A stretch of DNA of 64,000 bases. It comes from a virus. Position 1 is the first letter of the stretch. Every line of letters begins with the position of its first letter. The position numbers and the translations under genes are program-made. This document shows, one piece after another, positions 9,529-61,523 of this stretch. Below the pieces are notes generated by a model. The model saw only the letters and a program-made list of their open reading frames with translations. It had not been told where the DNA came from and searched no databases. The DNA lies in the IMG/VR virus record IMGVR_UViG_3300020583_000139, positions 7,868 through 71,867 of that record. The stretch is one strand, 5' to 3'.

Positions 9529-11276
9529 TTTACGATCTTTCCACCTTGGATGAGTTTTCCACCGATACTAAGATTGGGTTGTGGTCCTATGGGTGCAGCT
9601 TTGTAAGCCACACCTACATAGTTAATGCTTGTCAAATTTCCGCTGTTGTGCAGCACTATCGTATTGTTCACCGTCGCCGTGCTCGGGTTGTAGTAATGGC
9701 TGTAGTAGTCGGCTGCGTCGTTGCCGCCTGTGTCCGTCTCGCCCAGATAAAACATCGTGTCGAGCGGACCGGGGCTGCCATTATCTGGAGGCCCAGTACC
9801 GAACGCTGCGCTAAAGATGATGAGTCCATTCTTGGTCGACGGAGTAATGCTGGGAAGATTTGTCTGGTTCGTCTCCACTAGGTTAGTGGTCGTCGCATGA
9901 GATGCCGCCGTGGTTCCTCGCAAGCCACGAGAAATTGTGAGTGTCCCAGTTCCACCTCCAGAAGTTACCTGAATGATCTCACTTTCCCACATAAGAAAAT
10001 CGTTGTTGGCGATGGTGTTGGTGTTTACCGTGACGGTAGTATCCGTCGCGATCCTGGATTGTGTTGTCGTGGTGGCCGCAGTCACAGTAGTGCCATTTCC
10101 CGCAACGGTGTCGAATGGGGATGTAGCCGCACCGGATACACAATAGAGCATGTGCGCCCCACCGCTTGGTGTTCCAGTCTCGCTGATGGTGGTCGTCATC
10201 GTACTAGTAAGTGAGAGAGTACCATCGTCGCTGGAATAAACCTGCGATGTGTCGTTCGCATCGATCGAATGCTTTGTCAGAGTCTTTGTCGGATTCGCGA
10301 TGACCACGCCGGTCAAAGCGTCTTGGTTGACTCCAGCGGAATGAACAAAGATAAAGTGATTTGGATTGCCGAACCCGCACGGCACATTGACTGTCTGTGG
10401 GTAGGTAGCGCCAGGGAAAACATGGAAGATGCTACGGACGATGATACCAGCCGCGAAGTCCGACCCTTGCGAGGCGGGATTGAATGCCGCAGAGACCCCC
10501 ATGTTGTCGGTGTCGGTGTCGCCAGAGACTGTGATACCAGGGTTAATCGCCGCCGCTGTGCTCTGTACAAAGAACTGCGCCCACGAAATGAGCGCCGAGC
10601 CCATACGGTTACCTTCAAGCAGAGTGAAGCTCGACCCAGCGGTGAACCCGGTGGCGTTCGGCGCGTTGCCGGGGAAACCGCCGTTCGCGTCCATTCCAAA
10701 GTTTAGTATCAGGGTTCCGTTGACGGACGGCGTGAAGCTACCGGACGACATCGTTGGGCCGGTGAGCCCCTGAGCGCTGCCAGTCCCTTTCAAAGTACAG
10801 TCCGTGTTGTAGGACACGACTGCCATGCGCTTGAAGTTCAGAAGCGTCGAAGCGAAGTGAACCTTAATGAATTGAGTTCCGGCTACCGTCCCGCCCAAGG
10901 TGTACCAAATGGCGCTGTCGTTCGTAGTGCCGTTACCCGTGTTGCTTTGCTTTTTGGCGAGCGTCCAAGTGTTCTGGGTGCCGAGGTTGGACGCGCCGGG
11001 ACCACCCGGAGACTGAAGGTCAGTTATCGTAGGGTCCGTCGCAAGGTGATTGTAGGTGAGGAACAGCACCACGCAATCGTTCGTCGGAATGGCGTCGAGG
11101 TTGATGTTGAAATCATTACCGACTTCATTTCCTGCGTTCGAGGCACTATCGACAAATTGGATGATCGTCGGTGTCTGCGCCGAGCAGATAATCGGGAATA
11201 AGAAAAGCAGTAGTAGAAACCATACTCTCTTTATAGTCTGAATTGACTCCCTCGTCTTTATGGTTGCAACGTACAT
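9525..11276 (-). CDS. secreted Thr/Gly-rich beta-rich protein (fibre/adhesin-like)
   Basis: signal-like [19 protein letters not shown]; E.I.VT...LTISRG..GT.A..H module; exact start uncertain. Confidence 0.65.
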
Positions 11277-17200: not shown

Positions 17201-18946
17201 AGTTCCCGATCCGGAAGAATCCAAGCAAAGATTGGGAGCCGCGAGGTTGTGAGCCGTATCGGTAATCAGTTGAGCGCTGCCATTCGAACCCAGAACGCTC
17301 GCGCTAGTGGGGATGACCCCATTATTTACTTTTCCTACGGTCGTCGCGAGTGAGCCGGCACTGTTGGTCACGTCCCCCGTAAGTGCGGGGAAAGCTGCTG
17401 TGGGAAGTGTCGTCGTGGGGACGCAGATTTTGTTGATGCCCGTATAAGCGCAGATTTGATTTGCTACAGCATTCGAGGTCTGCGTGACGAGATTTGTATA
17501 GAGAACTCCGGAATCTAGCAAAATTGTTCCTGTGGTATTCGAGAACGCAGCAACATCGTTCGTCGTCGAGCTTCCAGGCCCGCTTACATTGCCACCGCCT
17601 GTGGGTGTCGCCCATGTCGCATCGCCACGCCAGAAAGTCGTGTTACTTGCTCCGGAACCGCCATTCAGATTGCTGACTGGTAGATTTCCGGTGACACCTC
17701 CGTTCCCCGAAGTAGCCAAGTTGATTGCGGGGACCTGCGCAGCCACTAATGCACAAAACGTTGGGGCAGCCGTTAAACTCGTGCAATTTCCGAAAACCGT
17801 ATTTGCGCCTTGCGTGTTCAGCGCGAAAGACAAGGCTGGCGTCGTCGTTGCCGTGGCCACTGAGGTCGTAAAAAGTGGGGAGAGAGTTCCGGCCGTAAAA
17901 GTCGTCACAGTGCCGTTCGTGCCGTTCGCGGCTGCGGTGATTAAGCCCTTGGCGTTTACTGTAATATTCGCGTTCGTGAACGAACCCACATTAGAGTTGA
18001 CCGTTGCGAGAGTCGTCACGCATGATCCCGCAGTGGTTGTGATGTCCCCGGTGAGTGCGGGAAAGAATCCGCAGCCAAGCGTTGCAGAAAGCGAACCCGC
18101 TGAACCCGTAGTGTTCTGGTTGAACGTCGGGAAATTCGTCATGTTAGCCGCGCTGATCGTCGGCGCGGTTTGGTAGCTCGGGACACCGGCACCGCCCGTG
18201 GGTGGACCTGCCAAGACAGAATTCTGGGCTGCGTTAGTCAAAGTAAAACTAAGCGCTGGTGTCGTGGTCGCCGTGGAAACAAACGTGGTAAAAATTGGGG
18301 ACAGATTACCCGCGCTAAAAGAAGATACCGTTCCACCGGTTATCAAACAGTTGCCACCAGAACTTGTAAGGCAGGTCAGTTGACTTGTTCCCGCATTTAT
18401 ATACAGCCGGAAGTTTCCCGCTGCGGGGTTACTTGGTGTCGAGATCCCCGTGATGTCCTGAAAGCTGCTGCCAATGCCTCCGGTGAATGCGCTGCCGCCT
18501 GTTCCTCCACCGCTGCGCGCGAACTCCGTCCAGACCGTACCGTTTAGTACCAAACTTAGGGAATTCGAAGTAGCGCATGACCAAGAAGAGTTGACGAGAA
18601 TTGTTGCGGAGTTTGCGACAGTCGTAAAAGTATCACTGGGTCCGCAGAGCAAACGAAGAGTCTGATGCGGGAAACCACCTAGAAAATTGGTAATCGTAGT
18701 TGCGCCGGTATTTTGCGTAATCCAGTTTGCTTGCTGCGAGATCGTAGGTGTTGTGCCAGTCGGAAGATTTGCCGCACCCCCGAGAATAGAATCGATCAGG
18801 CTCAGATCATTGTCGATGGGGACTTGCCAGTTTGTGGACTGGTAGGCAGGAATCACCAATTGAATATTGGGCGTGATGGTTTGGCCTTGCCCATAAAGAG
18901 TATTCACCACAAGCAAGGTTAAACAGATTAGAGTTGTTTTTTTCAT
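11258..18946 (-). CDS. giant (2562 aa) secreted fibre/adhesin-like protein with internal repeats and a Gly-rich region
   Basis: signal peptide; repeated GTVTSIATT...CATCVTS and FPALTGDV modules; GxGG-rich segment. Confidence 0.8.
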
Positions 18947-18961
18947 CTCAGTTCACTACCT

Positions 18962-22455: not shown

Positions 22456-23082
22456 CTACGTAAACTTCCCAATATCGAATCCCGCGATAAAGCTGTTGTT
22501 CAGATCGAAGCCAAAGGCCGGCAAGTTGAAAACGTAGTTGTACAGAACGGCTTGCGGCCGCGGCACAATGAGTCCATTTATAATCATCTGCTCAAGAATC
22601 GATGTAAAAGAACCCGTTAGAAAGATAGTCGCACTCATGTTTTGGTGATCCGCGATGATGATTTGCCCGCCAGGAAAAAGCGTTTCCCATATCGTTTGCA
22701 AACCATCGATCGTTCCGTCCCACTGATTCTGTGCTGCTTTTGCCTTGAGGTAAATACGATATGTGAGGTCATCCAAAATTGGATTGAGTCCACCAGTCGG
22801 CTGAAATGGAAGAACGCGAGAGGCTCCTACAATGGTCCCGATGGCATCTAGCTGAGGTCCGAGTGCGGAATCTACATCAAATGCGACTTCCATGGAAACG
22901 AGACACTGAGACGCATCATCAAATTTCCTTAGTAACAAGGAAAGGAACGCATTTAATTTTGGAGAATTTCGGTATTGTGAAGTAAGGAGGCCCAAATAAT
23001 ATCCCAAGGGAAGATTTTCAATGGGACTTGCCCCATACTTACCTGATCCATACTGACTGAGAGGATTGCCAAAGGAACTCAC
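22456..23082 (-). CDS. baseplate wedge protein, DUF2612-like
   Basis: SQYRNSPKL, G.QLD.IG.IVG.SR, L.D..YR..LKAK, PRP..V and FGFD motifs. Confidence 0.85.
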   Translation of the reverse strand: MSSFGNPLSQYGSGKYGASPIENLPLGYYLGLLTSQYRNSPKLNAFLSLLLRKFDDASQCLVSMEVAFDVDSALGPQLDAIGTIVGASRVLPFQPTGGLNPILDDLTYRIYLKAKAAQNQWDGTIDGLQTIWETLFPGGQIIIADHQNMSATIFLTGSFTSILEQMIINGLIVPRPQAVLYNYVFNLPAFGFDLNNSFIAGFDIGKFT

Positions 23083-23828
23083 TTTGTCCCTCCTGCAATC
23101 TCCGCACGCTTCAGACTATTTCTCAGTCGGAGAGATTGAGACATTTTGGCAATGGTTTCTGGGGGTCTCTTTTTACCCTTCCAGTAACTAGGCTTACCCA
23201 TGTGCGCTAACGAAAGTTTGCGTTTGGTTTCCTCAGAAGCTTTTATTCCACGCCTTGATGGTCTTTCTCCACGATGCGAAAGAGACAAATTCTTTCGATG
23301 CTCAGCAGAGAATGGCTTGCCCCGTTTAGAAGCCGACATTTTTTGAATTGATTCTTTGGTGTGCCTTCTTCCTAGCCAAATCTGAGCATGTTTACGTGCT
23401 GTCTCTTCTGATTGCTTTCTACCTGTCAGTGATTGGGAAATTTTACGACGTGTTTCCAATGAAGGCGACTTTCCTTTGGTGGGGCTTGGTCTACCTTTCC
23501 TGGTCAAAGACATCCGTGCCCTTGCTTCCTCGGAATGCTTCATCCCGAGAACCCCTTCCCCTCCATCCGTAAGATTGTAGCCATTGGGAACTTTACAATT
23601 GAGATAGGCGATCCAGTACTTTTCTTTCTGATTTAGAACTGACTCATCCTCAGCCGTATCTATGACCGAAAAATCGAATGATGTAATACCGTATTTTTTG
23701 ATAGCCTTGTGAAAATAGGATAGACGTGAGGCTCTTAAATGGCCTGCAATTCTTTCCTGTAGGGTGTGCGCGGTCTTCCCCACGTAAATCTTGCCATTTA
23801 TCCTGTTCGTCGCTTTGTAGACGATCAT
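23079..23828 (-). CDS. GIY-YIG homing endonuclease with NUMOD3 repeats
   Basis: IVYKATNRINGKIYVGKT, GYN.T.GGEG and repeated HS.E.R.K.S...G motifs. Confidence 0.92.
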   Translation of the reverse strand: MIVYKATNRINGKIYVGKTAHTLQERIAGHLRASRLSYFHKAIKKYGITSFDFSVIDTAEDESVLNQKEKYWIAYLNCKVPNGYNLTDGGEGVLGMKHSEEARARMSLTRKGRPSPTKGKSPSLETRRKISQSLTGRKQSEETARKHAQIWLGRRHTKESIQKMSASKRGKPFSAEHRKNLSLSHRGERPSRRGIKASEETKRKLSLAHMGKPSYWKGKKRPPETIAKMSQSLRLRNSLKRAEIAGGTK

Positions 23829-38140: not shown

Positions 38141-39265
38141 TCAAATTCCGTACATATATAACAGGGTCGTGGGACGGAGGATTTGTGGGACTCCTATGCA
38201 TCCCATGAAAAGCGTTTCGTATCCCGTGCTCTGAACAGAAGGCACGGTGAACACCTTCTGAATAGGTTGCGGAATCTTGAGATAGAGACTCTCTTCGGCC
38301 TTGCGGTAGAAAAGAATTTCGCTGGTTGCGCCTGTGCCTTGCGTGCTGATCCACGGGTCGGGCAGCGGCAAAATCTCGAAGTCGACGCCCTGGCGTCGCG
38401 CGACGTTGTTCATCAAAATGTATTCGAGCACGGAGTTGAAGCCACCCGTGGTCATGGGCTGATTCAGCACGCCCCAATGCTCGTAATCCACGAGTGCGGT
38501 ATCGGGAATACCTTCCACGTCGTAACCGCTGTTTTGCTGGACCTGAATAATGCCCGTATTGAAGTCATTCAGGATTTGTGTTGTGGTCTTCGTCGACCAA
38601 GTTGCGGTATTGCCCGTCCCGGTGAGAGGAGCCTGCACAGACGTAATGGCGGAGTTGTTCATCAACCCGCCGTAGCCGCCCCATCCGAGGTAGGTTACGC
38701 GATCAAGGGCTTTGTTCCAGATCAAGCGCAAGCCGGTGTCGAGGAGTTGTTGCAGCGAATAAGGCGCCGGAATCCCGAATTTCTTCGAATCGATCAGTTT
38801 TTGCAGATCGACATACGAAATGCGCATCGCCTGCGCCCAAATAAACGCCGGCCAGATGCCTTTCAGGACTTCGGCCTGAACGATACCCACATCGACGTTC
38901 TTGTTTTCCATCAAGCCGAACTGATTGTTCGCGGACGATCCGTAGTTCGCGGCCCATGCGGTGAGTTCTTCGACGTAGCCGCCACCGGTTTTGATGGGGA
39001 TATCGCGCGCATGCGTGACCGCTGCCAATGGTTCGACGAGCTTCACATCTGGCAGTTCGAGCATCGAGGCGAGATAGGCCAAGCCCGTGCCAGTCGTCGC
39101 GTCAATAGCTTGGCCGCGTTCGAGCAAGTCTTGGCACACTTGCAGAGCAAGTTGCGCCTGCTTTTTGCTGTCGCCGCTGTAAGACCACCGCGGCATCGTA
39201 TTGAAACGCTGGATTGCCCGTTGCGCGTCCATCGCGGCGTCACGCCGCGCGAGTTTTGCAAACAT
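38141..39265 (-). CDS. major capsid protein (DUF2184-like)
   Basis: MDA leader, RDIP...GGG, D...Y.G....GL.N, W..KT...IL.D, RP....Y.YGI end. Confidence 0.88.
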   Translation of the reverse strand: MFAKLARRDAAMDAQRAIQRFNTMPRWSYSGDSKKQAQLALQVCQDLLERGQAIDATTGTGLAYLASMLELPDVKLVEPLAAVTHARDIPIKTGGGYVEELTAWAANYGSSANNQFGLMENKNVDVGIVQAEVLKGIWPAFIWAQAMRISYVDLQKLIDSKKFGIPAPYSLQQLLDTGLRLIWNKALDRVTYLGWGGYGGLMNNSAITSVQAPLTGTGNTATWSTKTTTQILNDFNTGIIQVQQNSGYDVEGIPDTALVDYEHWGVLNQPMTTGGFNSVLEYILMNNVARRQGVDFEILPLPDPWISTQGTGATSEILFYRKAEESLYLKIPQPIQKVFTVPSVQSTGYETLFMGCIGVPQILRPTTLLYMYGI

Positions 39266-40158: not shown

Positions 40159-41769
40159 TTAGTTCGTGCCTGCGCCGTTGCGAAGGAACTTGGCAGACGG
40201 CCGGCCAGTTTTCTTCATTGCGTCGGCATAGATTTTGTCTGCGTCTGCGGCTCGCTTTTCCGCTTCTGACAGGCGAGGCTTGAACTCTTTGTCCGCGTCT
40301 GTACCTTCGTGGCGAGTCGTTGCAGATTTCAGAAAGTCGGCATAACTGCCATTGCCGGTATCCGTCTTCTTGACGATCTTTTTCAGCGAACTCGTGAGTG
40401 TGTCGAACGCCGCTTTCAGCTTCTTGTCATTCGAGCGCGCAACGAAAGGCTTGAGGAACTTGAGAAGTTGCAGGTTGGAGTCCGCGACCAATGACTGGAC
40501 ATCAGCCGCTTTGAGCGCACCCTTGGGCCGTTCATTGGCCGCGAGCACGGGTTCGGAGCGGACGATCTCGGCGTCTTCGCCTTCTTTCTCCTCTTTCTCT
40601 TCTTTTTCTTCCTCGTCCGCAGCATCCTCTTCGGCTTGCTCGTGTTCCGTTTCCTTGTCTTTGCCCTTGTCCATGCAATCGTCGCAACGGCAGCCTTCGG
40701 GATGCTTGTCGTCGTGGGCCTCGCCCTCGACAAAGTCATTCACCTTTTTCTTGAACTCCTCCATCTCGGCGTCGAGCGCGGCCTCGGTAGATGCATCGAG
40801 GAGTTTGTCGAGTTTGTCGTGCATGGCCTTGCGCGCATCATTCGCCGCTTGCTTTTCTTTGTCGTCGACCCCGGCGCTGCGCGTTTCAGTCCCGCCGACT
40901 TCCTTGAAAATCTTGACGCCATCTTTGGTCGTGCCGACATATTCCATCTTCGGTGCTTTGTCGGCCTCTTTGCCATCGGTCGCGATGCTGATGACGTTAT
41001 CGCGCTTTTTCTCGCCATCCACCGCTTCGGCAGCCGCGAGCACGTTCGGATCGCGCAAGGCTTCTGCGATATCCTCCGAGGGTGCGTCTTTGGCAAACAC
41101 ACGGAATCCTTCGCCCAAGAGATGCTTGAAAATGTTTTTCACGCGAGTCTCCTTCTTGACCGGAGCAGGAATAGGTTCCGGTGCTGAATCGTTGATGCGG
41201 GCCTCTTCGCCAGCTCGTGCCTTTTGAACGAGCGCGACGTGATTCCCGAGAATGTCGCGCTGATCCCATCGATAACCCTCGCGGGCGAGTCGATAGGTAT
41301 AACCGCAAGAAAGTTCTCGCTGGCCGGTTTCGACGGCGCGAATAGCTTCCTCGTCCTTAACGATAATGTCCGCGAGGAGCGGTAAATTCCCATCACTGAG
41401 GGGCTCGTCTCCTTGACGAACATTCTGGACATGTCCGCGGCTGTGACGGTTATCGTTCTGCGGAGTAAGCAGCTCGTCCGGGTGAGTGAGGGTGAAAGTC
41501 TTGCCCTCAAAACTTGCGATAGTGGCGCGCGAGAAGACTTCCGAAGGGTCGCGCCAAATCTGGATTTCTTCATCGGGGTTGTAACGCTCACTGAGCAAAC
41601 CCTGGGGATCGGCGATTTCAGAGACGCGATAAGTCTGGAAGCCAGTTCGCGCGATGACCGCGTTCCTGCAAATAAGATAACCGTCTTGGGTTCGCGCGAT
41701 GTTGTCGCTGAGGTGTTCCCCATGGTAGGCAACGCGGCGGTCGAGGGCGACGGGCACATCACGCCTCAC
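40159..41769 (-). CDS. prohead protease/scaffold (DUF2213-like)
   Basis: T.DGYL.C...IARTG.Q.Y, R...EVF....ASFEG...T..HP, ELS.GY, NHVALV..RAG; acidic scaffold tail. Confidence 0.9.
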
Positions 41770-44303: not shown

Positions 44304-44700
44304 GCCACGTTTCATCCGATACATTGACCGCGTTGAACCGCGTGAGTTTGCTGTCGGAGATCCGCTCACTTGGCGAGCTCGCGGCTGCCCCTCGGAGCGC
44401 CGTGTCGTCACCGTGCATTACACCCATCGCGTCGAAGCGCTCGCGGAAGCACAAGGGATTGAGTTCCTCTGCCCTGTGTGCTTTGCAAAGAATCGCGGCG
44501 CGGTTGGAACGCATTGGTGCGAAGTCTCCTTCGAAGGACGCGGCGTCAAACCCGCTCAGGGTAGTCACACGGACAAAGGTTTGCCGTCCAGATGGACAGT
44601 CTCAGGAACGAGCCTGGCAAACCTTACGTTGATGCCATCGATTAAGTTGGAAGGCGGATGCGCTTGGCATGGCTACATCACGAATGGCGGAATAAGTTAG
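44284..44700 (+). CDS. DUF6527-like metal-binding protein
   Basis: F.CP.C...H; W..SG....LTL.PSI....C.WHG.I..G. Confidence 0.65.
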   Translation: MRLTELEPRFIRYIDRVEPREFAVGDPLTWRARGCPSERRVVTVHYTHRVEALAEAQGIEFLCPVCFAKNRGAVGTHWCEVSFEGRGVKPAQGSHTDKGLPSRWTVSGTSLANLTLMPSIKLEGGCAWHGYITNGGIS

Positions 44701-45206
44701 GTCTGCTCCCACCAAATGCTTGTCTCTGGCACTAGCTTCGCGTGAGGAAAGAACGCTCTCACCGCGCGGTCTACGTCCCATCCTTCGGTGTAATCGTGGC
44801 CGCAGAATAAAGCGCCAGGAGCGCACCAAGCCAGCCAGTATTCGATGTCGTGGTACACGTTGTCATACCTGTGGTCGCCGTCGATGAAGACCATGTTGGG
44901 ACGTTTGTAGAGCCATTGCCCGATATTCATGTGGTCTGCGTGGACTGGCACGACGCGGCCTTTCGAACTGGAAAGATTCTCCTGGAATTTCCTGAATGTC
45001 TTTTCCTTCTCCCAGAGCATCTCCCAATTGTCTACCGCATAGACGGTGCCAGGGCAATGGTCTGCGAGCGCTCGAGTGGATCGGCCATAATAGCAACCTA
45101 ACTCGACGATGACATCGTGTGTGACCGCTTGCTCTGATAGCCACTGAAGTTCGAGACTGGACATCCATCCTTCGATTTCTAGAGCTGTTGAAATATTGAC
45201 CGTCAT
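44697..45206 (-). CDS. class I SAM-dependent methyltransferase (Methyltransf_24-like)
   Basis: GWM...EL..L, VELG.Y.GRST, AVD.W, FIDGDH.Y..V..D, GHDY. Confidence 0.85.
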   Translation of the reverse strand: MTVNISTALEIEGWMSSLELQWLSEQAVTHDVIVELGCYYGRSTRALADHCPGTVYAVDNWEMLWEKEKTFRKFQENLSSSKGRVVPVHADHMNIGQWLYKRPNMVFIDGDHRYDNVYHDIEYWLAWCAPGALFCGHDYTEGWDVDRAVRAFFPHAKLVPETSIWWEQT

Positions 45207-45241: not shown

Positions 45242-45616
45242 TCATGTCCCGGCTTTTTGCATCCACACTCTTTCACATTCTACATCCGCAAATATTACGT
45301 TATTCGCCTCCGCCCCCTTCCCTGCGCCTCCGACGAATGCGTGGCACCACTGACTGTTTATGAAATCACACAAGGAGTCTGCTAATTCTTTAGTGGGAAT
45401 GTCCATGATTAACCAAAAATCCACAACATCTATGCGCCCGTCAGATTGTCTTAGTTGCTCTTTGATGCCGAATGTTTTCCCTAAAGCGCATTCGTGATCC
45501 ACTCCAACCGTATATCTCTTTGCAAACGGAGCCTTGGTTAATTTCTTATAGACAGACGCTATGTTATCAGGGAAATAACAACGCTCTCCATTTAGTTTCA
45601 TTTTTCTCCTTCTCAT
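45242..45616 (-). CDS. hypothetical protein
   Basis: open frame with AGGAG before the second Met. Confidence 0.5.
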   Translation of the reverse strand: MRRRKMKLNGERCYFPDNIASVYKKLTKAPFAKRYTVGVDHECALGKTFGIKEQLRQSDGRIDVVDFWLIMDIPTKELADSLCDFINSQWCHAFVGGAGKGAEANNVIFADVECERVWMQKAGT

Positions 45617-45683
45617 TTATAGGGACAAAGCGGCTCGTGCTTCTCGCTTGCCATGACGGGTAGGATAGCACATTTTAGACCTC

Positions 45684-45716
45684 TTGACGTAAACGCTTAT
45701 TTATAGTAAACGTTTA
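45684..45716 (+). promoter_or_regulatory. promoter of the RAMP/repeat operon with two near-palindromic operator boxes
   Basis: TTGACG-17 nt-TAAACG; TAAACGCTTA (45690-45699) and TAAACGTTTA (45707-45716). Confidence 0.55.
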
Positions 45717-45748
45717 GCTCGCGGGGAATCCCGCAAAGGAGAAACTTG

Positions 45749-46432
45749 ATGAGCAGAGCAAACACAGCCGTCGCGATGGTCCCCAAAGGAGAAACTGGCA
45801 AGGTTATTCCAATAGTGCGGCCAACCATCAGTCATCTGGTCGCAATGATCGAAGGCATCACGCCACTTCTACAGAATCCGAAAACTGCGGATTATCTTCA
45901 GGCAATTGAGAATCCCGGAGATGCTGCACCGAGCAACAAAGTGAAAAATCCAGATAAGGAGTATAAGGATCGTTTGCGGGCCAGCAAGGGATTGTACCTG
46001 CACCCGGTCGAAGCATTCACTGGCCGCAAGGGAGTATTCCAATCAGCGGCTAAGGTGGCGCGTCTTCGCAAAATCAATTCGAAGATCGTAATGACTGGCA
46101 TAAAGATTGAACATGATCTCTTGTCCGAATTCGCTGATGGCATTCGGCCCTACATCGTCATCAACAGCAAGAGCGGCCCTGTCAACGACAAACACATTGC
46201 CGAGATCGAGAAAATGGGACGCCACATCCCCATCCCGATTTATCGCCCTCGCTTTGATGACTGGTCTATGGAACTCCGTATTTCCTATTGGCCGAGCCTT
46301 GTCAGTCTTTCAAACTTGATGTCACTTCTCGCTACGGCGGGGGAAATTGGCATTGGGTCCTATCGACCTGAGAATGGTGGAACCTTCGGGACGTTCAAGG
46401 TTTCATCGGCGCGGGAAGTTCCAAAGTTTTAG
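45749..46432 (+). CDS. solo Cas7/RAMP-like protein (Vipr-like effector)
   Basis: I.GITPLL.N first strand, P..AF..., YRP.F..W...., C-terminal glycine loop AG.IGIGSYRP..GG.FG.F.V; pentamer repeat array begins right after the stop codon. Confidence 0.75.
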   Translation: MSRANTAVAMVPKGETGKVIPIVRPTISHLVAMIEGITPLLQNPKTADYLQAIENPGDAAPSNKVKNPDKEYKDRLRASKGLYLHPVEAFTGRKGVFQSAAKVARLRKINSKIVMTGIKIEHDLLSEFADGIRPYIVINSKSGPVNDKHIAEIEKMGRHIPIPIYRPRFDDWSMELRISYWPSLVSLSNLMSLLATAGEIGIGSYRPENGGTFGTFKVSSAREVPKF

Positions 46433-46680
46433 CAGACTCGCAGCTAAGCGGAGCAAAGCCATGCGACGCTTGGCGTAGCCGAGCCTAGCAAAGCAAAGCC
46501 GAGCCTTTCAAACCCAAAGCGCAGCCAAGCTGAGCGCGGCGCGGCAGAGCGAAGCGCGGCGAGGCCAAGCGAGGCCTAGCACTTGCAAAGCACTTCAAAC
46601 TCGAAGCCTAGCGAAGCGAAGCCGAGCTTAGCCGAGCAAGGTTTAGCGAAGCAAAGCCAAGCATGGCCTTTCAAACTCGC
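46433..46680 (+). ncRNA. AGC-NN pentamer array 1: three guide-like segments (13, 15 and 13 units)
   Basis: strict 5-nt periodicity; delimiters TTCAAACCCAA (46507), TTCAAACTCGA (46594), TTCAAACTCGC (46670); leader CAGACTCGC. Confidence 0.8.
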
Positions 46681-46703
46681 ACCAATATTTTTAAGGAGGA
46701 TTC

Positions 46704-47294
46704 ATGGACAAAAGTTCAAAGACTTACATCCCGGCCCCTGGTTTCCACTTGTCGAGAACTGAAGCCAATAAGATCGGCAAGGCAATTGACATCTTTCTGA
46801 AAAAAGCTGGACGCGAACCAACGGTTGAGGAATTCGCAAAAGTGACTCGCGCCAGTTCCAATCCAGCCCATGCGGTCGTGGCTAAGAAATACAGAGAGAT
46901 GACTCGCACTGCATGGGCAAATGCCGCCGATTACTGCATTCGTGGTGTTGATGTAATATGGGTCTCCAGTGGCGGTGAAACATCGGCTCCTTCGAAGGCG
47001 TTCTACATTCTACAAATTCCAACAAGTGCGCCTGCTAGTTCCGAGGCAAGACTCATTTTGTCTCAGGGACAAGTAGCGCAATCTGCCGAAGCGCTGGCCA
47101 GCCAGGAATCGCTCATGCGCCAAACAATCCGCACGGCCTTTTGTGACTTCGCTGTCGTAGCCGGATTTGTGAAAGCGCGACAATCCGTGCTACTCCTTCT
47201 CAGCGAGTTGAAAGTACAATCTAGGGCGGAGGTGCATCATGGTCAGAAGGTGCGCACGTCGCAAGTGCGGCGTAAAATTCACACCGCGCATTAA
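46704..47294 (+). CDS. accessory protein of the RAMP/repeat locus
   Basis: AAGGAGG RBS; T.EE.......SNP.H.........A...A...IR pattern; sits between the two arrays. Confidence 0.7.
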   Translation: MDKSSKTYIPAPGFHLSRTEANKIGKAIDIFLKKAGREPTVEEFAKVTRASSNPAHAVVAKKYREMTRTAWANAADYCIRGVDVIWVSSGGETSAPSKAFYILQIPTSAPASSEARLILSQGQVAQSAEALASQESLMRQTIRTAFCDFAVVAGFVKARQSVLLLLSELKVQSRAEVHHGQKVRTSQVRRKIHTAH

Positions 47295-47379
47295 GTCACA
47301 ACGTTTCCATTCTCCGAAATGCAAGAATGCGGAAGCGCAGGCAAGATTTAGGACACGAAGCGTAGCGAAGCCAAGCTGA
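47239..47379 (+). CDS. 46 aa Zn-finger-like protein (not in ORF track)
   Basis: GGAGGTG RBS; MVRRCARRKCGVKFTPRIKSQRFHSPKCKNAEAQARFR...; C-x4-C...H-x3-C. Confidence 0.65.
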   Translation: MVRRCARRKCGVKFTPRIKSQRFHSPKCKNAEAQARFRTRSVAKPS

Positions 47380-47481
47380 GCGAAGCCGAGCGACGCCTAG
47401 CGGAGCGGAGCGAAGCAATTCAAACCCAAAGCGCAGCGCAGCCTAGCATCGCGCAGCCTAGCACAGCGAAGCGAACTCAAA
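47359..47481 (+). ncRNA. AGC-NN pentamer array 2: two guide-like segments (12 and 9 units)
   Basis: same periodicity; TTCAAACCCAA delimiter at 47419-47429; ends ACTCAAA. Confidence 0.78.
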
Positions 47482-48318
47482 TCATGCGGCCAGTTTTTGG
47501 AATCCAGAAAGTTTTATGAATTGACCGCGAGTTACCCGGAGAATTCGTCCTCCCGTGAAACATTTCGTGGGCCACGCGATAATATCCAGCGAGATGAGCG
47601 GCAAAAAGTTACAGCGGCAATTTGGGAATTCGCCAGCCAATCCACGTCCAAGAGTGGAGGGTTGTCCGATCAATGCCTCGGGCTGAGGGGGATCATCAAA
47701 GCGCATTAGCGCGCCATCTAGATTTTTGTGCGATGGTCTTACGCGCTGGTCCTTTGCCGTAATCCATTGTCCCCATTGAAGCCCTAAATCTTCTGCTCTT
47801 GCTCTTGTTAATGCCGTGCTCGCTTTTGAAGTTTCTGTCCGTGCAATCAATGCGGCCCGCGCCTTGGTAATCTGCGGGACTTTCTTCCGTAGATAATCTG
47901 CAATTGTTTCTGGTCGTAGACCTTCGAGTTGTAGTCTAGAAATTTCATTGTTCACTTCTTGGCGAATCGTAGCGGGAATCGAAGAGATAAGTTTGGCATT
48001 CTCGGCGACGAGTTCGTGGACGCGCTGGCCTACGCCGGTTTCCATTTCCTTTTGTAAGGCTTCGAAGATTTCACGTCCGCGGCTGGCTTCGCGCGCGGCC
48101 TCCCGCCAAGATCGTGCATTTACCACTTTGATTTGCGTGACCATGCGCCGCGCGATCGATGCTGCAAGGGATTCCAGTACCTCGGGAGTGCGTGAAAGAT
48201 TGGCGAAGGCTTGGAGCACGCTGTCAGGCGTGAGGTCATCAGGCAGGAACTTTCCTATTAGCTTTTGTATTAGCCTGCGATATTCCGTCTCGATGCGGTT
48301 TGGAGGATCGAACGGCAT
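47482..48318 (-). CDS. minor head morphogenesis protein (Mu gpF/SPP1 gp7-like)
   Basis: RA.LIARTE.SK, W.T..D.RVR.SH..L.G, G..PNCRC. Confidence 0.9.
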   Translation of the reverse strand: MPFDPPNRIETEYRRLIQKLIGKFLPDDLTPDSVLQAFANLSRTPEVLESLAASIARRMVTQIKVVNARSWREAAREASRGREIFEALQKEMETGVGQRVHELVAENAKLISSIPATIRQEVNNEISRLQLEGLRPETIADYLRKKVPQITKARAALIARTETSKASTALTRARAEDLGLQWGQWITAKDQRVRPSHKNLDGALMRFDDPPQPEALIGQPSTLGRGLAGEFPNCRCNFLPLISLDIIAWPTKCFTGGRILRVTRGQFIKLSGFQKLAA

Positions 48319-48462: not shown

Positions 48463-48539
48463 TGGTCGGGAACCTCGGATTCGAACCGAGAGTCTCGTGC
48501 TCCCAGGGCACGCGGGTTAAGCCGTTTCCCTAGTTCCCG
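48463..48539 (-). tRNA. tRNA-Pro(UGG), atypical C33
   Basis: cloverleaf CGGGAAC/GTTCCCG-A-CCA; anticodon arm CGTGC-CCTGGGA-GCACG; TTCGAAT T-loop. Confidence 0.88.
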
Positions 48540-48540
48540 A

Positions 48541-48612
48541 TTGCGGTGACTGGATTCGAACCAGCGACCTACGGATTATGAGCCCGTCGCGCTACCTCTG
48601 CGCCACACCGCT
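48541..48612 (-). tRNA. tRNA-Met(CAU), initiator-like
   Basis: ACGGG-CTCATAA-TCCGT anticodon arm; unpaired 1:72 (A:A); no encoded CCA. Confidence 0.88.
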
Positions 48613-48618
48613 GTAAGT

Positions 48619-48647
48619 TTTATACGCTCAAGGGATTGCTATGTCAA
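48619..48647 (-). promoter_or_regulatory. sigma70-type promoter directly upstream of tRNA-Met
   Basis: TTGACA-17 nt-TATAAA. Confidence 0.8.
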
Positions 48648-48651
48648 GAAT

Positions 48652-48737
48652 TGGCGGAGGGTGGACGAATCGAACGCCCGTCATCTCTGACGCCCTGGGT
48701 TTCGAGTCCAGTTGCCGGCCATTTAGCAGCACCCTCC
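48652..48737 (-). tRNA. tRNA-Ser(CGA)
   Basis: loop CTCGAAA, long variable arm, G73, encoded CCA. Confidence 0.88.
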
Positions 48738-48789
48738 GATGGAGAGTGCGAAGATGATTCGTTCGTCATAGCGGTAATCCTATCACATT

Positions 48790-48875
48790 TGGCGGAGCAG
48801 GAGAGACTTGAACTCCCACGTCCTTTCGGACGACAGATTAGCAATCTGTTGCGGCTACCATTTCGCCACTGCTCC
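48790..48875 (-). tRNA. tRNA-Ser(GCU)
   Basis: ACAGA-TTGCTAA-TCTGT, long variable arm, G73, CCA. Confidence 0.92.
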
Positions 48876-48880
48876 AAACT

Positions 48881-48972
48881 TGGTGCGCTCTATCGGACTC
48901 GAACCGATACGGGCCTACTTAGGTGCCAAGAGATTTTAAGTCTCTCGCGTCTGCCAATTCCGCCAAGAGCGC
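48881..48972 (-). tRNA. tRNA-Leu(UAA)
   Basis: AGAGA-CTTAAAA-TCTCT, long variable arm, A73, CCA. Confidence 0.92.
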
Positions 48973-52770: not shown

Positions 52771-54744
52771 TTAGCTCCTTATCATCTGCGGTCGTTTCTT
52801 TGTCGCGAGAACGCGATCTATAAACTTTCCAACTGGCAGAATTTCCATTGAACCAAAATGCTCAGGCCGGTCATAATTCGAGTAGAACGCAGCGCGTGCT
52901 TCGGCTTGCGAACCAAAATTAACGAAACATTTATCCTCATCGAACTCCATGAAGTCGGGTGCCTTCATTGTGTGGATGACGTAGACTTCCTCTGAGTTTG
53001 GGTCAGGCCCTACAAATACGTCAACGTGGTCCCCATCGGTGCCTCTCGTGTTGCGCAGGTACCCGTAGTCGTGAGTAAGTGTCACTTCCCAATCGTTGCC
53101 GCCTTTGTCTTTGCCCTTGCGCGTCGAGCCAGCTTCATTCTCAATGGAGATATCCAGTCCGTGCCACACGATGCGTTTATGTAATGAGCGCGCATCTGCG
53201 ACGACCGCATCTGCAGCACCCGTTTTGCGCAGTATGGATTGAGGACGTTCAGGATGACCAGGACTTGGTCCTTTACCTTCGATGCCAGCGAGCAACTCCT
53301 CGCCAGGCAGTTCAGGTTCCTCTTCGGCCTCGTTAATCTGTTCGTCGGTAATGTTTGTGAAGACATTCGTGGTTTCGCCCAAGGCTTGCAATTCTTGCAT
53401 GGCTGTTTTGCGGCCTATCACGCCCGAATCGTAAGCAGCAAGAATCGGTGCAGAGGCTTTCGTAACTAGCTCTGCTTTTTCTTCCTCGGTGAGTACGCGG
53501 ATCGACGGGAAAGACATATCCAAGTCGTCCGGAACTTCGCCAAAATCACTCATCAAGATTACGGGGAAAAGTTTGTCCAAGTTAGGGCGCAGATGGTTGC
53601 TTTGTTCTTTTGCAATGCGCTGCTCATAGAGGAGTTCGTCGGAATCGTTTGTTTGTCCCAAGCCAGTGATGGTACGGCCAAAAAGATGCGTGATGGTATC
53701 TTCGGCTGCGCCCGCCACATCCATCTGGAACTGTTGATAGACTTCGCTCATGCCGGCGAACGAATACTGGACCGCTTTCATGTCGCCATCTTTACCAAGG
53801 ATGAGCATGGACTGATTCGAGAGGATTTCATTCTGTGCCTGAAGCACACTGGCGAGTCGTTGTTGTGCCTGAGTGCCAGCGCCTAGTCCAGCGAGAAATT
53901 GGTCAAGAGTGGGATCGACACGCGCAATAATATTTGCGCGGAACATGAGCTGCAAGATCGACCAAGATGCATTGTCCTTTTTCCGTAGTTCTTCATAGAC
54001 CAATTCGAGGATCGAAATACCCCAATAGAGTTGCGCCTGGAGTTCTGGCGTAGGAATCTCTGGACCTGTAAATCTCAAGATGCGGCTGGAATGCACGCGG
54101 AAGTTTTGACCTTTGTCCTGCGCGTAGCAGTTGTAATATTCTGGTAGTCCCCATTCGAGAGGATGCCGCAAGTTTTCCGAAAGTTCGCTATCTTCGGGCC
54201 AGATGCCTACCCAACGATCAAACGGGATGAGTCCTAGATAACTACCTGGGTTCACGTCATCTAGGTCGAGTGGCTCTGCGAGAATCTTTTCGTGGCCTTT
54301 GATGACAATAAGCGCGCCCGCTCCGCCGTAGAGTCGTGCCCACTTCAAGGCTCGGCAAATGTTGTATGGCGAATATGTGCGCTGAATCGTCCGATTGAAA
54401 GTCTTGATATCCTCTGGGTCAATATCGGACACGAGCTTTGGCCATGCTCGTACCATATCCTCGGCTTTGCCATCCACGATTCGGCGCGCGAGCCAGTGAT
54501 TTCTGTAAAGCGTCAAAAGTAACCAGTAATTATTTGAGAGCCGGACCATTTCATAATCCGTGCCCTCAGTCAAAGATGGGCTACCCCATCCCATCCTGGC
54601 TACCATGTTCACGAAATAATCGATGCCGGTTTGACGGAGAGGATCGGTCGCGTCTGTCGCGACTCCATTGCCATTGGCGTGACCGTTTTTCTTGGCTTTG
54701 GCGATGCGGTCGCGGGCGATGCGCTTTTTGGTTTTGGCTCTCAC
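52771..54744 (-). CDS. portal protein (DUF1073-like) fused to a C-terminal inorganic pyrophosphatase-like domain
   Basis: LYR..W.ARRIVD..AEDM.R, WARLYGG, VH.SR...F.G, LFG....G; C-terminal IEN..GS.R, YGY...T.G.DGD.VDVF.G, DE.K. Confidence 0.88.
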   Translation of the reverse strand: MRAKTKKRIARDRIAKAKKNGHANGNGVATDATDPLRQTGIDYFVNMVARMGWGSPSLTEGTDYEMVRLSNNYWLLLTLYRNHWLARRIVDGKAEDMVRAWPKLVSDIDPEDIKTFNRTIQRTYSPYNICRALKWARLYGGAGALIVIKGHEKILAEPLDLDDVNPGSYLGLIPFDRWVGIWPEDSELSENLRHPLEWGLPEYYNCYAQDKGQNFRVHSSRILRFTGPEIPTPELQAQLYWGISILELVYEELRKKDNASWSILQLMFRANIIARVDPTLDQFLAGLGAGTQAQQRLASVLQAQNEILSNQSMLILGKDGDMKAVQYSFAGMSEVYQQFQMDVAGAAEDTITHLFGRTITGLGQTNDSDELLYEQRIAKEQSNHLRPNLDKLFPVILMSDFGEVPDDLDMSFPSIRVLTEEEKAELVTKASAPILAAYDSGVIGRKTAMQELQALGETTNVFTNITDEQINEAEEEPELPGEELLAGIEGKGPSPGHPERPQSILRKTGAADAVVADARSLHKRIVWHGLDISIENEAGSTRKGKDKGGNDWEVTLTHDYGYLRNTRGTDGDHVDVFVGPDPNSEEVYVIHTMKAPDFMEFDEDKCFVNFGSQAEARAAFYSNYDRPEHFGSMEILPVGKFIDRVLATKKRPQMIRS

Positions 54745-55301: not shown

Positions 55302-56540
55302 CTAAGCCGCTGCCAGCATGTAGCGGTACTTTGGAATCTTGGTGTGTAGTCCGTACCGAAGGCAATCAGCTTCATCATCGTTCTGCTTTAGGGGCTCCTC
55401 GACACCTCGCTTGGCTTTGTTGGGGTCCCAGACGTGGGCCATGATCCCCCGGAGCGTGCGCACACATTTCCGATTGATACGCAGTTTCCGCATTGCCATC
55501 ATGCCGGCGACAGTCTGCAATCCTTCGGTGACTTCGTTCTTTGCCTCAGCTACCCATATTCCGCGCCCTGCACATTCGTTTCGGAAACTGAGAGCCTCGG
55601 GCGGAATGATAACTTGGCAGGCTTGGTTCCCCATGAATTTGATGAGATTGTCCGCGTGTTGGCCGTCCGTGAGTTGGCGCATCTCTTGTTCGCTGTCCCA
55701 CACAAATTCGCGGTCAAGCCAAACCGTATCGCCATCGTCCCAGAATTCTTGGTAAACGTGAGGATGGTTTGTTCCGTAGTCGTTGCTGATCCAGTGGTCT
55801 TGGTGCCCGCCAGCATTCTTGAGCGTGATCGGTGCTTCGTCATAAATGAGTTCATCGCTCCACGCATCGCCCCAGATTGAGCCTTGCGCCATGACCCAGA
55901 GTCCGAGGATAAAGCGCATGTAGAACATGCCCTTGTAGAATTTCTTGAGCGTGTCCACGTAATCTCTGCCGAGATTCGGATTGTCTTCCATCGTCATGTG
56001 CAGATGGAACAATTCCTTTTGGAGTTCTCCGAGCGCCTTGTCAATAAAGCGTACCTTGAGCCAGTGCATCGGATTGTCGGGATTCGTCGTAGCGTAGAGC
56101 CGCGCGCCTTCGGGCGACATACGGGTGAGAAGCATGTCCCAAAAGGATTCGGGCATGAGCACAGCTTCGTCGACGATGGCTACGCCCACCGTGCTGCCAC
56201 GAATGAATTTTTCCGAAGCGATATCTCGAGCACCGAGTATTTTCCATTCCGTACCGAAGATGCTCAAGTGTCCTGTGTGCTGGCTGTAGGAATAATCGCG
56301 GTCGTCAATCAGGTCGAAGAGGTCTTTGAGAATGTTGGTGTAAACCGTGCCGGCCGTCTGGCCGATGAGCACGCGCCATCCAGGAACTTCGCTGTAACAC
56401 GCTTGCCAGATTTTCGGATGCAGAGCCCAAGTTTTCCCAGAGCGTACAGATCCATCGAGGATATTGATGCGCTTATCCTCGTGGAGAGGGCGCAGAGCAA
56501 AATCGTGAATGCGTGGGCCGTAATTAAGTCCGGATACCAA
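55302..56540 (-). CDS. terL: terminase large subunit (PBSX-like)
   Basis: Walker A DGSVRSGKT, Walker B AIVDEA, TTNP..P.HW, DNP.L, DYG..H, D...D..RY. Confidence 0.93.
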   Translation of the reverse strand: MVSGLNYGPRIHDFALRPLHEDKRINILDGSVRSGKTWALHPKIWQACYSEVPGWRVLIGQTAGTVYTNILKDLFDLIDDRDYSYSQHTGHLSIFGTEWKILGARDIASEKFIRGSTVGVAIVDEAVLMPESFWDMLLTRMSPEGARLYATTNPDNPMHWLKVRFIDKALGELQKELFHLHMTMEDNPNLGRDYVDTLKKFYKGMFYMRFILGLWVMAQGSIWGDAWSDELIYDEAPITLKNAGGHQDHWISNDYGTNHPHVYQEFWDDGDTVWLDREFVWDSEQEMRQLTDGQHADNLIKFMGNQACQVIIPPEALSFRNECAGRGIWVAEAKNEVTEGLQTVAGMMAMRKLRINRKCVRTLRGIMAHVWDPNKAKRGVEEPLKQNDDEADCLRYGLHTKIPKYRYMLAAA

Positions 56541-59718: not shown

Positions 59719-61038
59719 TTATACGCGAGTAAGAAGTTTCGGTTTTAGCCCCATTTCATGGAGGCGCTCGAGCGTGACGGCCACATAGTTTGGTTCTATC
59801 TCCATTCCGTAACAAATACGATCAGTTTGCTCGGCCGCGCAGATTGTAGTGCCGGAACCAGAGAACGGCTCGTAGCAGATTTCTCCCGTTTTGCTCCATG
59901 CTTCGATAACAAATTTAGATAGTTCTACAGGAAAAACTGCTGGATGCCCCTTAGTATGAACTCCTCTCGCAGCTTCCCGGTTGATGCGAATTACGGAATC
60001 CGGGATTTTGTGGTCCTGACCATAGAGTTCAGGAGAGCAAGCAGTATGAATTCGACCATCAGGATGACGTAGCGCATCTTTCTTCGCTCGGAATTTCTGC
60101 GAGTTTGGTTTCGTTGGAATTATTTTGTTTGGTTTCTGCCGTTCACGATTGAAATGAAATACAAATTCATGGGATGGCGCAAGTCTTCCCATCCAGTCTC
60201 CAGGCAAGCCACTACCTTGATCCCACACATAAAAACCAAATTTCCGCCATCCGAGTGTACGCATGTGGTTGATCCATGAATCCCAATACGAAAGCCATTC
60301 GCAGTCCCGATGAACAAGTCCTAAGTTGATTAAGACCTGCGTATTATCATCTGCCGGCAATGCGTCGGACATTGACTGCATCATCGCATCCCAGTCGAAA
60401 TCCTTTCCTTCATAATTACGCTGCTCGAAATAGGGGGGGGATGTGAAAACCACCTTCGCAAGTTCTTTACTCATTAGAGATGCAACGTGTTGTTTCGATC
60501 CCGCATCTCCGCACATCAGACGATGCCGACCGATTCCCCATATTTGCCCTAGCCGTGTTTTCCACTTTCTTGCGAGTTTCGATGCAATATCATTCTTTGG
60601 ATGTGGAACGCCGCTTTCTTGAGGTGTGGCCCAGAACTGCACTAGTTCGCGATCATCCCAGAAAGATGATAAATCCAAATCGAAATCAAGTTTCAAGTCT
60701 TTCAATAAATCGGTATTCCAGTCTAGATTAATTTCACTTGTGCGATTGTCGGCGATGGCGAGTTCTCTTGCTTTTTTTGAATCAAGGTCAAGGTCTGTGC
60801 GCTGAACCACGACCAATTCTTTGCCATCGGTTTCTACGACACGGATACGACCACCTTTCTTTTTGATTGCTTCTAAAGTTTTATTTCCCGCTATGACGCG
60901 ACCGGAACGATCAATTAAAATGGACCTACCCGCGCCGTATTTCGCGAGTGATTCTGCAATCATTTTTCTGCCGCGGTCTGTGCCGAGATTGGCATTCTTG
61001 TTATCCAGTCTCAAGTCTGTGATCGATTTTATTTTCAT
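59719..61038 (-). CDS. ParB-like domain fused to N4C/N6A DNA methyltransferase
   Basis: N-terminal SL..YG..RSILID...IAGN...LAIADNR; FTSPPY, HPA.FP, EPFSGSGTT, GMEI.P.Y. Confidence 0.9.
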   Translation of the reverse strand: MKIKSITDLRLDNKNANLGTDRGRKMIAESLAKYGAGRSILIDRSGRVIAGNKTLEAIKKKGGRIRVVETDGKELVVVQRTDLDLDSKKARELAIADNRTSEINLDWNTDLLKDLKLDFDLDLSSFWDDRELVQFWATPQESGVPHPKNDIASKLARKWKTRLGQIWGIGRHRLMCGDAGSKQHVASLMSKELAKVVFTSPPYFEQRNYEGKDFDWDAMMQSMSDALPADDNTQVLINLGLVHRDCEWLSYWDSWINHMRTLGWRKFGFYVWDQGSGLPGDWMGRLAPSHEFVFHFNRERQKPNKIIPTKPNSQKFRAKKDALRHPDGRIHTACSPELYGQDHKIPDSVIRINREAARGVHTKGHPAVFPVELSKFVIEAWSKTGEICYEPFSGSGTTICAAEQTDRICYGMEIEPNYVAVTLERLHEMGLKPKLLTRV

Positions 61039-61039
61039 G

Positions 61040-61523
61040 TTATGTCCACACGAGCTCCTTTTCAAAAACATGCTTTCCAGTCTTCGTGAATCCAGTGTGC
61101 CGCCATCCAGCGCGAAGATAACATCGGCCTACTGGAAAAGGGCAGAACTCAGCACCTCGTTTTTTTTTGTGTCCCGAGTTTGCGAGCATCGATAAATGTA
61201 TAGGCTAGTCCTGGTCCCCATTTTGTGACCGCCAGTCTTTCGGCTTCAAGAATGATGGAACTTGCTTCGCGACACGATTCGTTGCGGAAGATGGCGCAGT
61301 TGTATCCAACGCGACCGTCCATCCGTTTATCGTCTTGCGGCCACATCCACACAAAGAGAATCGTGCCTTCCGCGTTCCGTAAAACCAACTTCCGTCCTGA
61401 GTAGCAGAATTGTTTCTTCCCAATGCTTCCCGGTCGTCGTGTGTAGTGACGATCTGCAAGCGCACGGCACTCTTGGTCAAAGTGGTTCGTGCGGATTAGA
61501 CCGTCTGTGAATGCGAGAAGCAA
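61040..61523 (-). pseudogene. Mom-like (GNAT) DNA-modification gene interrupted by a frameshift at an A9 tract
   Basis: LADRHY.RR..G..QF...G..LVL, FRNE....S..I.EA; the G.CY..AGW...G.TK.G end lies in the next frame after A9 (61160-61168). Confidence 0.7.

Follow-up and report, generated by a model that had tools for sequence, protein, structure and literature searches.

The locus described here raises the question of whether a solitary Cas7-like gene of a phage, accompanied by arrays of pentamers built on the triplet AGC, encodes a system of the VIPR class, whose published guides are built on GGY, and of how its protein would then deal with the changed base. It occupies positions 45,684 to 47,481 of a stretch of 64,000 nucleotides (the window in what follows), which corresponds to positions 7,868 to 71,867 of the IMG/VR virus record IMGVR_UViG_3300020583_000139, a record of 71,867 bases that originates from a soil metagenome and is estimated to be 77% complete. 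The cassette is very probably a phage-borne VIPR system. What is new in it is a covariation between residues of the protein and bases of its repeats; the AGC triplet with a matching change in the pocket for the first base (G1), a minimal guide tail, and a linked zinc-finger gene and candidate operator give the locus a value beyond that of a further instance.

VIPR was described in April 2026 (bioRxiv 10.64898/2026.04.26.720920). According to the accessible text of that report, a phage-borne RAMP protein, Vipr, binds guide RNAs (vrRNAs) that carry a conserved tail behind 9-16 YNNGG repeats; the NN dinucleotides read double-stranded DNA and skip one base after every two, binding represses transcription, and in nature the targets are for the most part rival phages and satellites. 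The same text distinguishes seven types of VIPR and lists NNNGG, YNNNG and NNNNG as alternative repeats, mentions 'staggered' arrays in its legends, and admits 'a related consensus'; GGY>AGY is listed among the changes made to the SUSP1 guide, and perturbation of GGY is stated, in general terms, to have abolished silencing (bioRxiv 10.64898/2026.04.26.720920). A preprint of October 2026 reports, in its accessible part, that solo vrRNAs of satellites and phages act as decoys that redirect the Vipr of a rival. Twenty-one clusters of VIPR-like arrays with non-canonical triplets, such as GAC/NN, CAC/NN, WGT/NN and TGH/NN, are also on record (bioRxiv 10.64898/2026.10.21.760802, accessible text). 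The original prediction for this locus, which described VIPR as a Cas7-related protein paired with GGY/NN guides reading a gapped DNA target, agrees with these accounts. The whole word 'AGC' does not occur in the searchable main text of either report (720920 and 760802), a search that leaves their motif-listing figures and supplements outside. Given the published 'related consensus' and YNNNG repeats, an AGC triplet does not exclude membership in VIPR, and since VIPR systems with non-GGY repeats are already in print, the locus represents a further VIPR system and not a new class.

The assignment is carried in the first place by the protein. Among the sequences of solved structures, the 227-residue product of the gene matched only the SUSP1 Vipr protein (PDB 36pp_D), the similarity extending over its C-terminal 67 residues, which include the glycine-rich loop (phmmer E 3.7e-4). 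With a profile built from eleven sequences, the 227-residue protein and ten homologues, the same chain was matched at E 3.3e-15, positions 25-221 of the profile aligning with residues 1-189 of the 202 in the chain; the RAMP-style glycine loop that had been noticed at the outset (Table 1) lies within the alignment to 36pp_D. An AlphaFold2 model computed from a 101-member alignment reached a predicted local distance difference test score (pLDDT) of 93.8 and a predicted template modeling score (pTM) of 0.85, the single-sequence model (pLDDT 31) being unusable. Comparison with the PDB by Foldseek gave 97 matches at E <= 0.001, and among the matches listed all were CRISPR effector complexes (Cmr, Csm, type VII and Cas7-11). 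The kinship with Cas7/RAMP proteins and Vipr that had been proposed is thus established, the protein belonging to the Vipr family by sequence and possessing the RAMP fold by model. In PHROGs it falls into phrog_4652, a family of unknown function (E 1.2e-15), and Pfam, NCBIfam and PADLOC hold no model that matched the Vipr protein. The family is a large one, with 7391 representatives of 50%-identity clusters at E <= 0.001 against the profile, only two of which are close to the window protein; the close homologues found, five in number at 47-63% identity, are all metagenomic.

The second line of evidence is the anatomy of the arrays, for which an independent recount returned the same figures as the original prediction. 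Five runs of 13, 15, 13, 12 and 9 pentamers are found at 46440-46678 and 47357-47483, and by direct reading their 62 units carry AGC (49), GGC (7), CGC (3), TGC (2) and GGT (1), with G at the middle position and a pyrimidine at the third in every unit. The canonical GGY triplet, represented by GGC and GGT, is therefore limited to 8 of the 62, and one unit, ACTTGC at 46581-46586, is irregular in having 6 nt. Period-5 GC runs of at least four units number six in the 64-kb window, all within 46443-46667 and 47360-47472 and with lengths of 13, 13, 7, 5, 12 and 9; first-order Markov simulations, 100 in number, produced no such run longer than 7. In a tally that placed two units one base out of register, the entropies of the triplet columns were 1.02, 0.21 and 0.32 bits and those of the NN columns 1.84 and 1.88 bits, the latter being near-random. 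Each of the five segments is preceded by AC[ACT]C and two bases. The delimiter of 11 nt that had been thought to divide the segments was retained in part: TTCAAACYC, of about 9 nt, occurs four times in the window, always on the plus strand and always at a segment end (46507, 46594, 46670 and 47419), and the fifth segment has the deviant end given in Table 1. This motif, which recurs in relatives, is the sole separator of guides that otherwise abut, and it has no significant folding; the arrays likewise showed none against shuffled sequences (z +0.31 and +0.94), and no Rfam family, the hammerhead included, was matched in 45300-47800.

Relatives of the gene were sought in IMG/VR by means of the family alignment, which gave 14 loci, and to these were added a metagenome contig (L016) and a cultured phage, LESphi2. 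An IMG/VR search with the 227-residue protein alone returned no relatives, a scan of genome contigs for close relatives returned none, and a scan of metagenomes found only the contig of one IMG/VR locus (L001) again, as L015, and the short L016. In all 14 IMG/VR loci, period-5 arrays adjoin the gene on its own strand, with no CC runs, so that homologous genes are indeed accompanied by pentamer arrays, as the prediction had expected. Eleven of the 12 distant loci (25-32% identity) have canonical GG[CT]-NN arrays, the twelfth being L003. The two close loci, L001 on a viral contig of 165 kb (56% identity) and L016 on a contig of 1.5 kb (57% identity), have arrays of the NGC type: A is the commonest base at position 1 (46% and 62%, respectively), G occupies position 2 in 91% and 87% of units and C position 3 in 73% and 86%, and NN is variable. 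At the guide ends of both loci stand AAATC[AG]AAC[CT]C-like motifs, at intervals of 76-101 nt, which are the counterpart of TTCAAACYC in the window. The expectation that homologous loci would keep the triplet, as AGC/NGC, and the delimiter while NN varies was accordingly realized in both close loci.

The arrays of L001 (4676-5553 and 6091-6350) hold about a dozen guides that are far more degenerate than those of the window, with A at position 3 in 18% of units, T at position 1 in 27% and degenerate tails; they may be decaying or under looser constraint. LESphi2 (Pseudomonas phage vB_Pae_LESphi2, OQ594955.1, 1640-2680), the sole match among cultured phages, has three GGC-NN guides with long structured tails upstream of a Vipr homologue of 194 residues with Asp at the G1 site. 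This locus, annotated as hypothetical, adjoins cI and a sigma-factor-like gene, and constitutes a canonical VIPR in a cultured P. aeruginosa phage.

The manner in which AGC might be read was approached through the contacts assigned to SUSP1 Vipr, which in the accessible text of the report are H17 and D177 for G1, R138 and W178 for G2, and R179 among others for Y3, the substitutions D177A and R138A each abolishing silencing (bioRxiv 10.64898/2026.04.26.720927). HMMER alignments, which reproduce the published numbering of H17, R138, C173, D177, W178 and R179, place N43, R166, S204, Y205 and R206 of the window protein opposite H17, R138, D177, W178 and R179. The contacts to G2 and Y3 are thus kept (R166, Y205, R206) and both contacts to G1 are altered (H17 to N43, D177 to S204); the former correspond to the invariant positions of the repeat and the latter to position 1, the non-canonical one. 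The idea that AGC is the protein-bound triplet gains indirect support from these altered residues. Within the 101-member alignment, R166 is present in 101 members, an aromatic residue at 205 in 97 and R206 in 98, and at the D177-equivalent site 66 members have Asp or Glu, 22 have Ser and 9 have Ala. With an acidic residue in only 66 of 101, non-acidic G-loops are a common variant and probably underlie the published YNNNG class.

The covariation itself is observed across loci. Serine occupies the D177-equivalent position in the window, L001, L016 (through P0003) and L003 (27% identity), and in all four position 1 is not rich in G (13-20%). Where Asp or Glu stands at this site and the array is readable, as in 11 viral loci, G makes up 45-83% of position 1 in an automatic count that is diluted by chance runs from coding sequence, and all of these loci keep GGY; LESphi2, outside that count, combines Asp with a GGC-NN array when read by eye.

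A rival explanation grants that this is a VIPR system and holds that Ser204 merely relaxes the G1 pocket, position 1 being free as in the YNNNG class and the excess of A arising from mutation bias or duplication within the arrays. It draws on L003, which has Ser and favors no base at position 1 (A 34, T 28, C 21 and G 17%), on L001, where position 1 is less uniform than in the window (A 46, T 27 and G 20%), on the tolerance of GGC, CGC and TGC in the window itself (with GGT, 13 of 62 units), and on the YNNNG and NNNNG repeats named in the published text (bioRxiv 10.64898/2026.04.26.720920). A nevertheless accounts for 79% of position 1 in the window (49/62) and 62% in L016, against the near-random fourth and fifth positions, and NN differs between neighboring units, so that recent duplication is not the source of the constant A. 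We regard a wholly free position 1 as possible but rather unlikely.

Several observations weigh against the proposed system or its altered reading of position 1. The independent lineages are few, the three close Ser loci forming one clade and L003 a second, and the Ser loci differ among themselves, with L003 lacking a preference for A. The H17/N43 site does not track the repeat, as several GGY loci have Asn. One Glu locus (L002) is uninformative in the tally, because the contig end cuts it off and only a spurious run was caught; GG runs were seen there outside the tally. The tail is far shorter than the type II tail of about 40 nt, and capping or processing may therefore differ. A consensus promoter scan reported no promoter upstream of vipr. 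Among the sequencing runs listed as containing the stretch none was of RNA, and the contigs compared with it added nothing, one of them perhaps being its source and two others sharing short identical segments. Finally, exact-seed scans of IMG/VR and genomes found no natural target, and the extensions of their matches were at the level of chance. We lean, by a little, towards Ser204, together with Asn43, being the cause of a changed or relaxed reading of position 1. The stronger proposal, a natural specificity switch in which the Ser/Asn pocket reads A and not G, the pair is orthogonal to GGY systems and the divergence was driven by guide-hijacking conflict, is offered only tentatively and we would not expect it to prove correct.

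The searches for targets covered several collections. Under skip rules 0-3, no self-target above the level of shuffled guides was found in the phage record of 71.9 kb, and in this the window phage resembles published VIPRs, which are likewise without a self-target. The seed scans used exact seeds of 18-20 bases, those for IMG/VR comprising, in each guide, the nine inner NN nearest to the 3' end. With guides 1 to 5, they returned 0, 3, 1, 3 and 1 records (8 in five scans), and the reversed guide-4 control seed returned 0. The best full-length extensions of these matches were 23/28, 22/26, 19/20 and 21/26, which, by our own binomial estimate, chance would produce many times over in so large a collection, and in the five seed-matched records that were taken whole the other four guides gave no match above shuffled controls. 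One seed match (L018) lies in a portal-like gene that has no homologue in the window phage, with the skip bases at codon position 1. In 596 Gb of genomes, a 10-NN seed gave 3 matches; the best (24/28), of a quality for which our own estimate predicts about 29 matches by chance, lies in an unannotated gene of a metagenome-assembled genome with no Pfam match. Cross-targeting among the guides of the window, L001 and L016 was not found. Compared with codon phases, NN composition scored +8.5 bits for sense positions 1-2 and +11.2 bits for antisense positions 2-3.

Failure to find a target in these exact-seed scans would also be expected if the locus had decayed or been orphaned, its arrays being disused or its guides serving the Vipr of another element in the manner of the solo vrRNAs that the published accounts, in their accessible text, place in satellites and phages. 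The deviant end of the last guide and the single unit of 6 nt point the same way. The vipr frame is intact, however, and keeps the family-invariant R166, W172, G201, G211 and G214, its arrays are far more regular than the L001 arrays, and the locus has its own vipr and vap genes with ribosome-binding sites, which together make decay very unlikely.

Compared with the type II systems of SUSP1 and a Pseudomonas fulva prophage, the window cassette shares a single small RAMP protein that is homologous (36pp_D, E 3.3e-15), a two-gene core of vipr and vap carried by a phage, arrays of 9-16 pentamers in which the triplet is fixed and NN is free, more than one guide per locus, with guides on both sides of the accessory gene, and the residues that contact G2 and Y3, as well as the lack of a self-target. 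It differs in its triplet (AGC, as opposed to GGY), in the replacement of the G1 contacts H17 and D177 by Asn and Ser, in an unstructured tail of about 9 nt where type II has about 40 nt with a pseudoknot, in an extra zinc-finger open reading frame (ORF) of 46 codons, and in a vap without detectable likeness to anything named; the identity of its protein to SUSP1 Vipr is low. Its C-NN-AG unit fits the YNNNG pattern of the non-canonical VIPRs, its guides abut almost without a spacer as in the 'staggered' arrays, and, like the non-canonical VIPR-like arrays, it pairs a Vipr-like fold with an adjoining array. The Cas7 RAMPs of class 1 systems (Csm3, Cmr4 and type VII Cas7) are more distant, at about 10-15% identity, and their period is 6 nt with five read bases, against 5 nt with two read bases in the window. 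Class 1 CRISPR-Cas also differs in its other components: PADLOC Cas models matched none of 70 window frames at E <= 1e-5 (frames of at least 100 amino acids, chosen greedily by length with overlap below one fifth), and Tandem Repeats Finder detected no CRISPR-like array in the window, in keeping with the earlier statement that other cas genes and classical CRISPR repeats are absent. The locus thus has the minimal composition of vipr and vap, the latter conserved in L001, without cas genes or a CRISPR array, in a phage with a head module.

Table 1. Features of the VIPR cassette and of the surrounding head genes (positions in the window)
Feature	Position	Strand	Remarks
Putative promoter/operator	45684..45716	+	TTGACG 45684-45689; TAAACGCTTA 45690-45699; palindrome TAAACGTTTA 45707-45716
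Leader hairpin	45721-45734	+	GCGGGGAATCCCGC; direct reading
Ribosome-binding site	45736-45741	+	AAGGAG; direct reading
vipr, Cas7-like RAMP protein, 227 aa	45749..46432	+	G-loop GIGSYRPENGGTFG
vrRNA 1	46440..46515	+	13 AGC-type units, tail TTCAAACCC
vrRNA 2	46516..46602	+	15 units including irregular ACTTGC, tail TTCAAACTC
vrRNA 3	46603..46678	+	13 units, tail TTCAAACTC
vap-like accessory gene, 196 aa	46704..47294	+	homologue in L001; N-terminus weakly like sigma-70 region 3 helix-turn-helix
Zinc-finger ORF, 46 aa	47239..47379	+	56-nt overlap with vap 3' end in another frame; last codons in first units of array 2
vrRNA 4	47357..47427	+	12 units, tail TTCAAACCC
vrRNA 5	47428..47483	+	9 units, end ACTCAAATC; abuts stop codon of convergent MuF-like gene
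Major head protein	38141-39265	-	head module
Head protease	40159-41769	-	head module, separated from MuF-like gene by cassette and some small genes
MuF-like head morphogenesis gene	47482-48318	-	head module; convergent with VIPR operon
Portal gene	52771-54744	-	head/packaging module
Large terminase	55302-56540	-	head/packaging module

The three ORFs that had been called in the cassette, of 227, 196 and 46 codons, were confirmed. The promoter that had been ascribed to it has a mixed standing, as TTGACG is seen by eye and the consensus scan, as noted above, gave nothing. TAAACGYTTA has three matches in the window, all at 45690-45716, against 0.10 expected, and it overlaps the putative VIPR promoter in all three close loci (window 45690-45716, L016 293-322 and L001 3751-3772). 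L016 has TTGACA-N17-TAAACGTTTA, and in L001 TAAACGCTTA abuts TTGACA. TAAACGYTTA is, from its placement in the sequence, a candidate operator that may serve autoregulation. The equivalent of the leader in L016 is taken up by a vrRNA of about 14 units.

At the corresponding place between its arrays, L001 has a gene whose protein shows 42% identity to the 196-residue product over 150 residues (E 2e-41). Arrays, tail motif and vap are all conserved in relatives of the window locus, the vap homologue being confined to L001/L015 among 17 loci searched. The 196-residue protein resembles sigma-70 region 3 at scores below the cut-offs (Pfam Sigma70_r3, E 0.027; NCBIfam SigF/SigG, E 0.055), has no match in PHROGs, and in a structure atlas falls with viral hypothetical clusters, with a weak likeness to winged-helix/helix-turn-helix folds (TM < 0.4); these likenesses agree with, and do not show, a DNA-binding vap. 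A PDB match to FAP44 (E 3e-4) was judged spurious. The ORF of 46 codons, with GGAGGTG 5 nt ahead of its ATG, matches Pfam zf-CGNR at E 1.2e-4 and 22.2 bits, just under the cut-off of 24; it could be a separate gene, a frameshift product or a chance frame. A Zn-ribbon ORF of 49 codons lies just upstream of vipr in L001 and is unrelated to that of the window, and in L016 CPVCG and CRQCG can be read by eye in an ORF that precedes vipr.

The presence of two predicted DNA-binding proteins encoded between or beside the arrays leads to a further rival explanation, namely that the arrays act as DNA, as iterated sites to which the vap or zinc-finger protein binds, and not as guides, in which case one AGC per 5 bp would bring alternate units onto one face of the helix. 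The family of the adjacent protein, however, has been solved in complex with such repeat RNA, vipr homologues have arrays beside them irrespective of their accessory genes (the window-type vap being found only in L001/L015 of the 17 loci), and a hypervariable NN fits a guide rather than an iteron. We consider such a function of the arrays extremely improbable and retain the reading as guides of a VIPR system.

The surroundings of the cassette are those of a phage structural region. As first described, it stands on the plus strand among head genes: it is embedded in a minus-strand head/packaging module whose terminase, portal, MuF-like, protease and major head protein genes are its neighbors (Table 1). 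A small hairpin, UUUUUGG-AAU-CCAGAAA, is present at 47484-47512, at the junction between the VIPR operon and the MuF-like gene that converges on it; without this hairpin, late minus-strand transcription could run antisense through the arrays. A DNA-methyltransferase-like gene (44697-45206, minus strand; Methyltransf_24, E 1.2e-16) lies immediately upstream of the cassette, and a second one is found at 59722-61128 (minus strand; Type II MTase, E 5.6e-42). Five tRNA genes (Pro-TGG, Met-CAT, Ser-CGA, Ser-GCT and Leu-TAA) are clustered at 48463-48972 on the minus strand, between the MuF-like and portal genes. Elsewhere on the minus strand, an ORF at 23082-23828, in the structural gene region, matches homing-endonuclease models (E 1.5e-12), and a single open frame of 2564 amino acids extends over 11261-18952.

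Given these features, the cassette may be envisaged to function as a single plus-strand unit comprising vipr, three vrRNAs, the vap-like gene, the small zinc-finger gene and two vrRNAs. Transcription and processing would release vrRNAs of about 55-87 nt with 9-15 units each, TTCAAACYC presumably marking where one guide has its 3' end and the next begins. By homology to the SUSP1 complex, whose structure is solved, each pentamer would be occupied by a single Vipr protomer, and the resulting filament would bury the fixed triplet and present the two free bases, N43 and S204 shifting or relaxing the position 1 preference in the direction of A. Taken together, the dinucleotides would read double-stranded DNA and skip one base after every two, should the skip rule extend to the AGC variant, and binding would silence transcription of the target, likely a competing phage or other mobile element.

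VIPR is a class of RNA-guided DNA binders only months old that reads a gapped code, and among the known base contacts of the window Vipr only those in the pocket for the changed base are altered, which makes the locus a ready-made test of how the repeat is read. The short, unstructured tail and the abutting guides raise the question of how guides are cut and capped without a pseudoknot. If the specificity has truly been switched, the locus would provide a second, orthogonal pair of protein and guide for multiplexed repression. For the phage, such a switch would mean that the changed triplet, together with the minimal tail of 9 nt, makes its Vipr deaf to the solo-vrRNA decoys of rivals, and that its own guides would be useless to them.

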